This document shows, in pieces, positions 7,230-43,536 of a DNA stretch of 52,640 nucleotides (within the stretch, counting starts at the first letter, position 1; each line of letters begins with the position of its first letter). Source of the stretch: a virus. Its lineage: Duplodnaviria; Caudoviricetes. The notes beneath the pieces are model-generated. The model was not told where the DNA came from and did not search any database. It saw only the letters and a list, made by a program, of their open reading frames with translations. The DNA is taken from positions 1 to 52,640 of the IMG/VR virus record IMGVR_UViG_3300048026_001019; one strand, 5' to 3'. Both the position numbers and the translations under genes were made by a program.

Positions 7230-7335
7230 TGATTTTCCTTTGTTACTCTTTAATAGGTGAGCGTTGGGGGGAATTTTATTGCTCACATAGTAGTTATCTA
7301 TATTATTGAACCTTTGTATAGATAAGGTTACCATT

Positions 7336-7370
7336 AAAAAAGAGTGTGGCATCTCTGCAACACACTCTTT
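7336..7370 (-). terminator. Terminator downstream of tmRNA
   Basis: AAAGAGTGTG..CACACTCTTT stem plus T run. Confidence 0.65.
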
Positions 7371-7374
7371 AGTG

Positions 7375-7685
7375 CTATTTTTGGTAACAAGGTATAACTA
7401 CCCCGTAACAGCCTAAGCCGCTAATGCCATCTCTGGCGCATAATTGTCATTTGCAATTATAAGTTTCGTTCGCGTTAACCGAGCTTACATCCGGGCAACT
7501 CCACTCTCCTATTAACTAACAGTCGATCCTATTTCGACCCCATCATAAACACACGACTTGCACCCTTTCGAGGTCTTGTCCTATACACAGAAAAGCAGGT
7601 GTATCTACTCTCATGTGCTTATGGTGGAGTCGCCGGGTACCGCCCCCGGGTCCTGTCTAGCGTTTGAATTGCTTCAACGTTACAA
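7375..7685 (-). ncRNA. ssrA: Circularly permuted (two-piece) tmRNA, alphaproteobacterial type; outer ends approximate
   Basis: Acceptor piece GGACCCGGGGGCGGTACCCGGCGACTCCACCA ends at 7622; intervening segment 7621-7542; coding piece starts GGGGTCGAAATAGGATCGAC at 7541; tag frame 7454-7413 reads ANDNYAPEMALAA*. Confidence 0.93.
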
Positions 7686-7688
7686 ATA

Positions 7689-7719
7689 TATTTATAACAC
7701 AGAAATTGTTATATGTCAA
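7689..7719 (-). promoter_or_regulatory. Overlapping sigma70 and T4-like late promoter for tmRNA
   Basis: TTGACA-17 nt-TATAAA, whose -10 box extends to TATAAATA. Confidence 0.65.
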
Positions 7720-40229: not shown

Positions 40230-40306
40230 ATAAACAGATGAAGAAATAGGCTCAATTTTTTTTGAGCAAATTTTTTTTAGGTTGAATTTACTAAAAGGAA
40301 AAGAAA

Positions 40307-41137
40307 ATGACGCAACTAATATCGCCGAAGAAGTTTACAAACACCGTTGACCTTTTAAGGTCATTTTTTTTGGACAAAGGATTTTTAGAAGTCCATACGC
40401 AGAATAGGCTTAGTATACTAGCCGCATGCGAAGATCCATTTAATGTAGCAACATATAATTACGCAGGCCAAGTTTGGCCATTGCCGCAAACAGGCCAGAT
40501 GTGGCTAGAACATGAATTATTAAGTAGCCCCGATAGTAAGGGGTTTTTTTGTGTCTCCACTTCCTATAGACAAGAACCAAACGCTATTCCGGGTAGACAC
40601 GATATAATATTTCCAATGTTTGAATTTGAAATGCCAGGTAGTGTTGATGATCTTAAAGCAATGGAGTATGAACTATGTGAGTACTTGGGCTTTGATGCAC
40701 TAACAGAAAAAACATATAGAGAATGGCAACAGCATTGGGGTATAAGTGCAGACACTGAAATGGATGCAAGTCACGAACTAGCAATGGAGATGAACTTTGG
40801 TAGTTGTTTGATTACAAACTTTCCAGAGCTAACATCACCTTTCTGGAACATGGCTAGAAACGATGATGGCAATACAGCAAAGAAAATGGATGTTATACTA
40901 GGCGGTATGGAAACTATTGGATCAGCAGAACGCTCATGCGATGTTGATATGATGCGTGATACATTCCATAGTATTGTAGATGGAGAGTATAGCGAATTAC
41001 TATACAAACTATTTGGCAAAGAACGTGTAGAAGCAGAGCTTGAAAAGTTTTTAGAGTTTGACTTTTTTCAAAGAGTAGGCGGAGGTATTGGTATTACACG
41101 TATGATACCTGCACTAGAAAAGATCAACAAGATATAA
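40307..41137 (+). CDS. Class IIb aaRS-like catalytic core (AsnRS/AspRS-related) lacking the anticodon-binding domain
   Basis: Motif 1 FFLDKGFLEVHT, LPQTGQ, motif 2 SYRQE..RH..FPMFEFE, ETIGSAER, motif 3 GGGIGITR; 276 aa, beginning just before motif 1. Confidence 0.88.
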   Translation: MTQLISPKKFTNTVDLLRSFFLDKGFLEVHTQNRLSILAACEDPFNVATYNYAGQVWPLPQTGQMWLEHELLSSPDSKGFFCVSTSYRQEPNAIPGRHDIIFPMFEFEMPGSVDDLKAMEYELCEYLGFDALTEKTYREWQQHWGISADTEMDASHELAMEMNFGSCLITNFPELTSPFWNMARNDDGNTAKKMDVILGGMETIGSAERSCDVDMMRDTFHSIVDGEYSELLYKLFGKERVEAELEKFLEFDFFQRVGGGIGITRMIPALEKINKI

Positions 41138-41143
41138 GAATGA

Positions 41144-41243
41144 TCTGGGGTGGTGAAATGGTAGACACGCACGGCTGTTAACCGTGTGGTAAGTAACTCG
41201 CAAAGTATTTACCGTGGAGGTTCGAGTCCTTCCCCCAGAGCCA
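41144..41243 (+). tRNA. Atypical 100-nt tRNA-Asn(GTT) with long variable arm
   Basis: Acceptor TCTGGGG/CCCCAGA, G73, CCA; D arm GTG-AAATGGTAGA-CAC; anticodon arm CACGG-CTGTTAA-CCGTG; V arm GGTAAGTA..TATTTACC; T arm GGAGG-TTCGAGT-CCTTC. Confidence 0.9.
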
Positions 41244-41256
41244 ACTAAATACTATA

Positions 41257-41300
41257 CGTTCATCCCATAAAGGGACGGAAGTAGCACTAGCGAAGGAACG
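41257..41300 (+). promoter_or_regulatory. Glutamine riboswitch aptamer (glnA / glutamine-I type)
   Basis: CGTTC-ATCCC-ATAAA-GGGAC-GGAAGTA-GC-ACTA-GC-GAAG-GAACG: P1, P2, E-loop AGUA/GAA and a short P3. Confidence 0.8.
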
Positions 41301-41326
41301 CACTTTAACCGCAAGGGAGAGGTGTT

Positions 41327-41413
41327 ATGAATACTTACATGCTCTGGTGCTTTAAACGTGCCATCCGCAAAATGCATGAGAACAGAATAAACTTTATATT
41401 ATCTAAACGTTAA
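41327..41413 (+). CDS. 28-aa basic peptide downstream of the glutamine riboswitch
   Basis: GGAGAGG RBS; MNTYMLWCFKRAIRKMHENRINFILSKR*. Confidence 0.6.
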   Translation: MNTYMLWCFKRAIRKMHENRINFILSKR

Positions 41414-42020: not shown

Positions 42021-42355
42021 TCATAACTTTCGCCAGTTTCACGAAAGAAGTTTTCACTCCAAAACGCTTTGTCATCTATCCAAATATCGTAGTTCTCTTT
42101 TTCACCTACGCTTAGTTCATGGAACTTTGCACCCCATTTTACTAATTGGTTATTTGTTAGATTGTAATAGTCTACTCCACTAACACAACCTCTAGCTGTC
42201 ATATATTTAATTGTGTGTCCTGCGTCAAATAGTGCATTTACTTTTGCAATACGATCTGGCATTGGTATATGATTAGCATAGTCTTTTTTGCCACCGCTGT
42301 CAGGTATAATTACTTCTTTACAGATGGTGCCATCAATATCAATTACGTACTTCAA
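42017..42355 (-). CDS. Small HAD-superfamily phosphatase
   Basis: IDIDGTIC, YMTARG, WIDDKA. Confidence 0.85.
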   Translation of the reverse strand: MKYVIDIDGTICKEVIIPDSGGKKDYANHIPMPDRIAKVNALFDAGHTIKYMTARGCVSGVDYYNLTNNQLVKWGAKFHELSVGEKENYDIWIDDKAFWSENFFRETGESYE

Positions 42356-43536
42356 TTCAATAATCCTTCCAAAGTTTGTAGTACTTGCTCACTGTTATCA
42401 GCTCTTCCTGTAACAATAGCATCTTTAACACATTGTCTAGTAAACTCTAACGGAAACCTTGCTCCGTCTTTGTCCATACCTGTGTTAACTAGATAGACAT
42501 TAGCTTTATGTGTGTCTATTTTATCCATTAATAAATCGCTATATTCAGAAACTGCCCTAGGCATAAAGGGCGAACCATAGCAAGGACTAAACAAAGGTTT
42601 GATTTCGTTTGTTCCTGCTTCTGTTCCTGGCATTTGACTAGTGTATCCTGTTTCAAAAAACCTACGCACTGTGTTGCCGCTTATTTTACTAATAGGTGGA
42701 AACATGCCTTTGGCATCCATTGTTAAAAAGAAAATGTTAGTAGGGTGATCAAAATCTGTTGTGTCATATGCATTTTCAACAAGGTTTAAAGGATAACTTA
42801 GCCTAGCATTAGCGGCGCCTGGGTTTTCTTCAACCAAACAATTGTTTGACCTTGCTAGCTCTACTGCATTAAAAATAGTTGGATGTGTTTCAGGTGTTAG
42901 CCCTTCGCTCTTAGCATAACACCCTGTTTCTATCATATTAACGCCTTCGTAGTTCCATGCTATTTCGTCATCACCAATTAGTTTGTAATCAGGATCGCTA
43001 GACAATGTAGTTTTACCAGTGCCACTAAGACCAAACATAAGATTAGTACTGTCCTTGTAAGTAAATGCACTACAATGCATAGGAAGTACTTTATGTTCTG
43101 GTAATTCAAAACTTACAATACCAAACACGCCTTTCTTAATTTCTCCTAAGAACGTAGTGCCTGCAATTAGCATTACATGTTCGTCTAGATGTACGTGTAT
43201 TTTAGGCTTTGACATTTCAATGTCTGTGTTATGTAGTATTGTCCAGTCAGCTGTATATTGTAATGGGTTATCAACCACAGGAAACATATTGCGTACAAAT
43301 TGTGCATGCCTGTCGTCATTTGTTTCTACTCTAAAACAAAGGCCGCAAGTATAAAACACAAGATTATGATTGTATTCTAATTCATACATATCGTTATGGA
43401 AGTCTTTAAAGTCTTGCTCATTACCAATCTTATTATACTTAGGCCTAGTAAGATCTAATGCTTCAGTACGATGTCCAAAAAAGTATTTGTTCTCCGGACT
43501 TCTACCTGTCGGGTGTGTCGTTATATTAATATTCAT
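42352..43536 (-). CDS. pckA: ATP-dependent phosphoenolpyruvate carboxykinase, compact form
   Basis: TGRSP, GEIKKG, LPMHCSA, FGLSGTGKTTLS, IGDDE, GCYAK, FSPCYGSPF, YLVNTG. Confidence 0.92.
   Translation of the reverse strand: MNINITTHPTGRSPENKYFFGHRTEALDLTRPKYNKIGNEQDFKDFHNDMYELEYNHNLVFYTCGLCFRVETNDDRHAQFVRNMFPVVDNPLQYTADWTILHNTDIEMSKPKIHVHLDEHVMLIAGTTFLGEIKKGVFGIVSFELPEHKVLPMHCSAFTYKDSTNLMFGLSGTGKTTLSSDPDYKLIGDDEIAWNYEGVNMIETGCYAKSEGLTPETHPTIFNAVELARSNNCLVEENPGAANARLSYPLNLVENAYDTTDFDHPTNIFFLTMDAKGMFPPISKISGNTVRRFFETGYTSQMPGTEAGTNEIKPLFSPCYGSPFMPRAVSEYSDLLMDKIDTHKANVYLVNTGMDKDGARFPLEFTRQCVKDAIVTGRADNSEQVLQTLEGLLN

Follow-up and report, generated by a model that had tools for sequence, protein, structure and literature searches.

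The window analysed here is a 52.6-kb viral contig (52,640 nt; Caudoviricetes, IMG/VR record IMGVR_UViG_3300048026_001019) from a large marine phage, with a G+C content of 37.8% and a CheckV completeness of 16%, whose genes are densely packed and include many host-like metabolic genes. On its plus strand it carries the gene of a 276-residue protein with an ATG start, designated X in the following, and directly behind it a tRNA gene with a long variable arm (Table 1). A preceding reading, made from the letters alone (the sequence-only reading), had described X as a class IIb aminoacyl-tRNA synthetase core and had offered three explanations for the pair: X charges the tRNA via its acceptor stem or variable arm as a minimal orthogonal pair, X amidates aspartate either free or on tRNA, or the RNA serves as a cofactor.

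The stop codon of the X gene ends at position 41137 and the tRNA starts at 41144, so that 6 bases lie between them, and a consensus scan found no terminator-like site in this gap. RNA-library contigs identical to the window span the junction (40804-41236 and 41067-41217) and weakly favour a shared transcript; other parts of the window are without such contigs, from which we draw no conclusion. In line with the sequence-only reading, which had considered co-transcription probable, the X gene and the tRNA are almost certainly co-transcribed, and they are inherited as a unit. Sigma-70-like promoters were uninformative (five found versus 6.1 expected).

Enzyme X and the long-arm tRNA

The sole Pfam match of X is PF00152 (tRNA-synt_2; E 4e-16), in which residues 12-275 correspond to profile positions 27-297 of 308. 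This match comprises the catalytic domain only, and an N-terminal OB anticodon-binding domain is absent. X carries motif 2 (YRQE...GRH), an ETIGSAERS stretch and motif 3 (GGGIGITR), while the proline of motif 1 is replaced (EVHTQ). Pfam coverage and motifs confirm the earlier description of a class IIb core that lacks the OB fold. The PHROGs assignment of X is phrog_29758, function unknown, and all curated NCBIfam models remained far below their cut-offs, among them asnS (NCBIfam TIGR00457; 32.9 bits, cut-off 342.6), asparagine synthetase A (NF005055; 21.1 bits, cut-off 389) and EpmA/GenX (TIGR00462; 13.6 bits, cut-off 286.9). When a profile of the X family was compared with solved structures, asparaginyl-tRNA synthetase (AsnRS) was the best match (1.2e-13), followed by AS-AR (3p8t; 1.4e-5) and GenX (1.8e-4).

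An AlphaFold model of X has a pLDDT of 96.2, and Foldseek aligns it with the catalytic domains of AsnRS (2XTI/2XGT, 1X54, 9SH8, 8TC8) at E values of about 1e-17 and TM scores of 0.72-0.79 on the query. The fold comparison was discarded as a test of specificity because the asparagine, aspartate, lysine and GenX relatives all lie near 1e-17 and are indistinguishable. In an alignment of the pocket with one AsnRS, one aspartyl-tRNA synthetase (AspRS) and one LysRS taken from genomes, Glu68 and Glu106 of X are as in AsnRS, and Leu67 occupies the place where AspRS has a lysine. R88, E90, R97-H98, E202, R209 and R265 are retained in the X family; conservation is at least 90% for the acidic residues and for the ATP-binding arginines of motifs 2 and 3, in tRNA-paired and unpaired X alike. 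The catalytic site is thus predicted to be intact and the amino-acid pocket to be of the asparagine type, and X is accordingly a class IIb core of Asn type that has no anticodon-binding domain. It resembles the AsnRS of known structure in fold, in motifs 2 and 3 and in the two glutamates; these enzymes, by contrast, possess the OB domain (the AsnRS of genome G064 has 468 residues).

The tRNA gene matches Rfam family RF00005 with 52.8 bits over 41144-41240, and the CCA end is encoded at 41241-41243. The tRNA is 100 nt long, its anticodon loop reads CUGUUAA with GUU at 41177-41179, and the structure of lowest energy has a fifth hairpin in addition to the cloverleaf, which together bear out the tRNA(GUU) with a long variable arm predicted from the letters. 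ARAGORN finds the window tRNA and calls it Gly(acc); among the 100-nt forms of the window and the related loci L001-L080, such tRNAs were either missed or called Gly(acc), Asp(atc), Glu(ctc), Asn(att) or Stop(tta). The mislabelling arises because the anticodon is misplaced in the long arm, and automatic annotation will under-report tRNAs of this kind.

The following features were counted over 44 distinct tRNA sequences, including that of the window. The cloverleaf is 99.1% paired, 17 of its 28 pairs change on both sides (a level reached in 0 of 500 shuffles), and compensatory changes also occur at the base of the extra hairpin. U1-A72, G73 and U33-G34-U35-U36 are invariant, and the CCA end is encoded in 42 of the 44. 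Within the anticodon loop UGUU is fixed and the flanking positions 32, 37 and 38 vary; position 37 is U in 35 sequences, A in eight (among them the window) and C in one. The extra arm is present throughout, with 13-17 nt in 12 and 28-32 nt in 32 sequences, and the long arms share the motif GCAAWNTATTT. The short variable loop of 4-5 nt that is typical of bacterial tRNA-Asn does not occur in the set, the arm measuring 29 nt in the window, and no member has a Leu, Ser or Tyr anticodon. The conserved TATTTA of the long arm was considered as a promoter element and rejected, since by eye it resembles neither the -10 box nor the late box of T4.

With its long variable arm and matching D arm, the tRNA falls into class II. 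A covariance model built from the 44 sequences scores phage tRNAs at 73-115 bits; when it was run on five alphaproteobacterial genomes, each of the six top-ranking places made into loci was a tRNA-Leu, and none scored above 63 bits. The identity set of AspRS and AsnRS comprises the anticodon GUU and G73, that of the amidotransferase GatCAB the pair U1-A72, and a purine at position 37 is needed for good decoding. The body of this non-canonical tRNA is accordingly of class II and Leu-like, and its putative identity marks are those of tRNA-Asn.

Distribution of the pair and of the X family

A scan of viral contigs yielded 588 confirmed stretches with X relatives, of which the best 80 (80-93% identity) were kept. 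According to the covariance model, the tRNA directly follows the X gene in 76 of these 80 loci. Among the four misses, L052 and L060 end at the open reading frame and L031 breaks off within the tRNA, 48 nt beyond the open reading frame, which leaves L038 as the one locus that genuinely lacks the tRNA. Parsing covered 74 of these loci together with the window, P-SSM7 and P-SSM2, and in all 77 sources the tRNA starts 4-10 nt past the stop codon; L069 is exceptional with a gap of about 130 nt. The same arrangement is found in the cyanophages P-SSM7, P-SSM5 and P-SSM2, where the genes are annotated as 'tRNA ligase' and 'tRNA-Asn'. In the records of P-SSM2 and P-SSM5 (about 252 kb each) this tRNA is the only tRNA match, and P-SSM7 has four; the tRNA is probably not a codon supplement. 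In a more distant set it was present in 20 of 45 loci not labelled as giant viruses, and the arrangement is held down to about 55% identity of X. The neighbouring genes vary from locus to locus, and X and the tRNA therefore move as a cassette. Free-standing copies of the tRNA away from X were not found in the records searched. The adjacency of X and tRNA is beyond chance.

As a side observation on P-SSM2 (L082, AY939844.2), the annotated tRNA-Asn feature at 164094-164179 sits inside the coding sequence PSSM2_205, and the tRNA actually lies at 162083-162168, about 2 kb away. The feature coordinates were seemingly not updated with the sequence version.

The X family itself extends much further. 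A protein search returned at least 8000 matching clusters at 90% identity, and a search with representatives gave 172 clusters at an E value of 1e-30 or better; a single distant query (P0156) found no match in viral contigs. Two huge phages have no such tRNA beside X, their tRNA-Asn genes of normal length being located far away, and the L086 clade likewise lacks such a tRNA beside X, a 47-kb contig of this clade (85% complete) being without a match anywhere. None of 35 loci labelled as giant viruses has such a tRNA next to X, the neighbours there including Rpb1, PCNA and MutS. In prokaryotic genomes no such tRNA stands beside X in 74 of 80 loci, which include Patescibacteria (complete chromosomes), Rickettsiales, Aureispira and Moheibacter, with Bacteroidota among the carriers; the six loci with the tRNA are contigs of marine metagenome-assembled genomes (60-81% identity). 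Some orthologs that lack the tRNA and occur in cells equipped with AsnRS or GatCAB are still 54-60% identical to X in the best aligned segment. In a FastTree phylogeny of 146 X sequences with three outgroups (AsnRS, AspRS and LysRS from genomes), the paired X proteins group in a single clade with an SH-like support of 95, in which 32 of the 38 rows are paired and six are not, with L092 apart on a long branch, and the tree needs five state changes. Enzyme and tRNA are thus not constant companions of the pylS/pylT type: the linkage expected by the sequence-only reading exists inside one clade of marine myophages and dissolves outside it. X most likely belongs to a family of adenylate-forming enzymes, free-standing and of class IIb, whose broad distribution exceeds that of the pair.

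Our literature searches retrieved no description of the pair or of a function of the family, and the sequence-only reading likewise knew of none for the pairing. One table lists a 'tRNA ligase' (T4-GC 194) without comment (PMC3037559), and the portions available of two other articles contain nothing relevant to the pair or the family (PMC7824862, PMC3877843).

Pyrimidine synthesis and the proposed role of the pair

Outside the phage clade, X is repeatedly associated with genes of pyrimidine synthesis. Among 13 longer relatives of at least 484 residues, two of which were checked individually for domain content, eight combine a DHO_dh (PyrD) domain with the X domain, and one combines the X domain with OMP decarboxylase (PyrF). 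A tight X-pyrD-pyrE-pyrF operon is present in a member of the Midichloriaceae (L248). In one giant virus (L127) the small subunit of ribonucleotide reductase (RNR), PyrD, UMPS and X are found together, and in L126 X lies between the genes of the large and the small RNR subunit. A pyr gene adjoins X in four further loci (L106, L113, L146, L156), and in L200 PyrD is 1.3 kb away. In 12 genomes carrying X, counted over cut-off, pyrB and pyrC occur in none and carB in one, while PyrD is present in eight and PyrF in seven; pyrB and carB were both found in 14 of 14 control genomes. AsnB is present in five of the 12 carriers, which are five of the six genomes that have X, PyrD and PyrF together. In the G012 family, X occurs in one of 61 genomes and pyrB in 48 of 61, the X carrier not being among them. 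Among the phages, P-SSM2 and P-SSM7 encode PyrE over cut-off; the window proteins gave no match to PyrD or PyrE.

The supply of Asn-tRNA in the carriers does not depend on X. Three of the 12 have AsnRS and the other nine GatB, so X is not their AsnRS and is not needed for Asn-tRNA. Among sampled alphaproteobacterial genomes AsnRS was over cut-off in one of 61 (one of 60 without the unpublished G047), and this rarity, together with the alphaproteobacterial type of the transfer-messenger RNA (tmRNA) of the window, suggests that the host of the window virus makes its Asn-tRNA via AspRS and GatCAB.

The interpretation that we favour, with a probability of roughly 40%, is that X is an adenylate-forming enzyme that feeds an early step of pyrimidine synthesis and that marine myophages have captured a non-decoding tRNA-Asn as its partner. 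The reaction, the substrate and the contact between X and tRNA that we infer are as follows. The main role of the family is most likely metabolic. At the expense of ATP, X would form dihydroorotate, or the compound immediately before it, from a substrate of the asparagine or aspartate type; it would in this way supply PyrD, PyrE and PyrF and take the place of carbamoyl-phosphate synthetase, aspartate carbamoyltransferase and dihydroorotase. One clade of marine myophages would then have gained a dedicated tRNA that is co-transcribed with X. This tRNA appears to have kept the marks for loading (GUU, G73, U1-A72) and to have mostly lost the decoding purine at position 37, which is why we read it as a captive tRNA. 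It would be loaded by the host and would serve X, for example by delivering asparagine where this amino acid is made only on tRNA, and it would not mainly read AAY codons. Among the three explanations of the sequence-only reading, that of the RNA as partner or cofactor fits best. A more detailed version, in which X as a single-enzyme shortcut closes asparagine to dihydroorotate with ATP and probably CO2, and in which, in ocean phages whose hosts form asparagine on tRNA alone, the captive tRNA, loaded by the AspRS and GatCAB of the host, hands its asparagine to X, seems to us a long shot; if true, no earlier case would be known of a step in nucleotide synthesis that depends on a tRNA.

Several observations weigh against a pyrimidine enzyme with a captive tRNA. 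Four of the 12 carriers lack PyrD and five lack PyrF, and two complete chromosomes of the Saccharibacteria type (G004, G005) have X and none of PyrD, PyrF, pyrB, pyrC and carB; a pyrimidine role is therefore not universal, unless a Dus-like flavoenzyme replaces PyrD. A pyr gene is within reach of X in only five of about 184 viral loci, and the contrast between X and pyrB in the G012 family hangs on a single carrier. Residues specific to paired X are limited to M1, T2, L4, T11, W140 and I169, without a basic patch, and the mean net charge of paired X is -19.5, which would not be anticipated if X held on to an RNA arm. The tRNA of the window has the normal A37 and a canonical CUGUUAA loop and so could decode. 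The RNA-library contigs, finally, may contain DNA and cannot show transcript ends.

Individual elements of the proposal have counterparts in known systems. AS-AR (3P8T) and AsnA are free-standing class II cores derived from an Asx synthetase that serve metabolism rather than tRNA charging, as is proposed for X, and adenylation of the aspartate side-chain carboxyl has its precedent in them; their sequence match to X is only distant, and neither enzyme is known to be associated with pyr genes or with a tRNA gene. HisZ, a HisRS paralog of ATP phosphoribosyltransferase, and EpmA/GenX, a LysRS paralog, are likewise synthetase cores recruited elsewhere, and GenX (3a5z) is a structural neighbour of X; unlike X, neither has a link to a tRNA gene. 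Among dedicated synthetase-tRNA pairs, PylRS, also of class II, does not read the anticodon, and its gene lies beside that of its own unusually shaped tRNA-Pyl (pylS-pylT). X, however, is far more widespread than its tRNA, and this tRNA has an invariant sense anticodon. The non-proteinogenic tRNA-Gly of staphylococcal cell-wall synthesis keeps its charging identity, has lost ribosomal features and serves a non-ribosomal enzyme. It is a cellular class I tRNA that receives its glycine from the ordinary GlyRS and serves the Fem transferases, whereas the tRNA considered here is phage-encoded, class II-shaped and adjoins a synthetase-like enzyme.

Class II synthetases face the variable-region side of the tRNA, and the extra arm could thus replace the lost anticodon contact if X were a private synthetase that charges its tRNA with asparagine or aspartate via acceptor stem and variable arm, for use at AAY codons. 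This orthogonal pair, the first option of the sequence-only reading, has the tight and persistent adjacency on its side, as well as intact class II catalytic residues, the AsnRS-like pocket, the invariant GUU and the mostly encoded CCA. We nevertheless consider it unlikely, given that X lacks the tRNA as a neighbour in 74 of 80 loci from genomes and in 35 of 35 giant-virus loci, that X occurs in genomes already provided with AsnRS or GatCAB (12 of 12 carriers with AsnRS or GatB), that some orthologs are fused to PyrD or PyrF, that the strongly acidic X shows no adaptation specific to the paired state, and that 36 of 44 tRNAs carry a pyrimidine at position 37. Amidation of Asp-tRNA by X, the part of the second option that concerns tRNA and would bypass GatCAB, is not favoured and would seem unlikely on steric grounds. 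The other part of that option would make X an ammonia-dependent asparagine synthetase similar to AS-AR or AsnA, accompanied by an ordinary, host-charged tRNA-Asn in a module for asparagine supply. The class IIb core without anticodon domain is the architecture of AS-AR, the family profile detects 3p8t, and the pocket is of the asparagine type. Such an enzyme appears rather improbable to us all the same: the family is nearer to AsnRS than to AS-AR, X scores 21.1 bits against a cut-off of 389 in the asparagine synthetase A model, five of 12 carriers also keep AsnB, and free asparagine would be useless to a host without AsnRS. The fusions to PyrD and PyrF, the pyrD-E-F operon, the long arm, U37 and the sole-tRNA status in P-SSM2 would all be left unexplained.

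Phage tRNAs that evade tRNA-targeting defence have been reported (PMC11555353, PMC12409363), and the tRNA might have a job of its own, either as a tRNA-Asn that escapes an anticodon nuclease or as a processing or stability element closing the X message at its 3' end, and merely share cassette and transcript with X. The varying loop flanks around a fixed UGUU and the lack of adaptation in X to the paired state are consistent with this, and the end of an RNA-library contig at 41236, near the 3' end of the tRNA, is a weak hint in the same direction. Against it stand the spacing of 4-10 nt, which is held to about 55% identity of X across changing neighbourhoods, and the lack of free-standing copies in the records searched; a pure processing signal, moreover, needs neither GUU nor G73 nor U1-A72. 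We give this explanation little credence.

If X indeed feeds pyrimidine synthesis with a captive tRNA as partner, a very abundant gene of ocean viruses would belong to an unrecognised enzyme family that replaces the first three pyrimidine steps in some Patescibacteria, Rickettsiales, Bacteroidota, giant viruses and phages, and the tRNA would be a new case of a tRNA withdrawn from translation to serve an enzyme. Were X a private synthetase instead, a 276-residue enzyme that does without the anticodon, with its own class II-shaped tRNA, would be of interest for genetic-code engineering. P-SSM2 and P-SSM7 are in culture together with their Prochlorococcus hosts, and X is small and its fold confidently predicted, so that these ideas are directly testable.

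Some gene neighbourhoods of X outside the phages merit separate mention. In a patescibacterial locus (L227, 8-3834), PyrE, a cytosine-deaminase-like amidohydrolase (PRK06886) and an ArgH-like lyase precede X, a gene row that may mark a different or longer pathway. In L220 (1176-2183) and L264 (1797-2819), on Saccharibacteria-type chromosomes without PyrD and PyrF, a Dus-like flavoenzyme below the DusB cut-off is encoded directly upstream of X and might replace PyrD or act on tRNA. A gene for phosphoenolpyruvate (PEP) carboxykinase lies directly upstream of X in two Flavobacteria-type genomes (L256, 1217-2785; L242, 1068-2669), and the window has one on the minus strand at 42355-43536, 1.2 kb from X; this proximity may tie X to the supply of oxaloacetate or aspartate.

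Other features of the locus and the window

Table 1 Features of the X-tRNA locus, in coordinates of the window
Feature	Position	Strand	Remark	Basis
Terminator-like hairpin with T run	40250..40267	+	would close the upstream unit, the X gene opening a new one	consensus scan only
AAGGA, putative ribosome-binding-like site	40295..40299	+	7 nt upstream of the ATG	read from the sequence
X gene, predicted 276-residue free-standing class IIb AsnRS-like catalytic core (PHROG 29758)	40307..41137	+		
tRNA(GUU), class II body, U1-A72, G73, encoded CCA, A37	41144..41243	+	anticodon 41177-41179	
Variable arm, 29 nt, 8-bp hairpin with GCAAWNTATTT	41187..41215	+	motif in all long-arm copies	

Beginning 11 nt past the tRNA, a glutamine riboswitch aptamer (RF01739; 52.7 bits) is located at 41255-41304 on the plus strand. 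It was considered as a component of the pair and rejected, as it occurs in only two of 20 related loci, namely L072, where it adjoins the tRNA, and L003, where it is about 1.5 kb off. Downstream of the riboswitch, a 28-residue basic open reading frame without PHROG match (41327-41413, plus strand) follows; a small phage peptide under glutamine control may merit interest. The tmRNA of the window is of the permuted alphaproteobacterial type and is encoded on the minus strand at 7322-7718; a tmRNA is also present in L019, L020, L025, L027, L028, L033, L046 and L066, in several of them directly upstream of the X gene. The window further encodes a tRNA-Thr.

The host-like genes of the window are distributed over positions 125-52240. 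They encode ClpS, Hsp20, IMPDH/GMP reductase, ribosomal protein S21, RNR, glutaredoxin, two NifU-type proteins, cytochrome c, MlaC, an Hc1 histone-like protein, an alternative oxidase, phosphoribosyl pyrophosphate (PRPP) synthetase, an aminotransferase similar to 5-aminolevulinate synthase, a short PEP carboxykinase, GAPDH and an aldolase-like protein.

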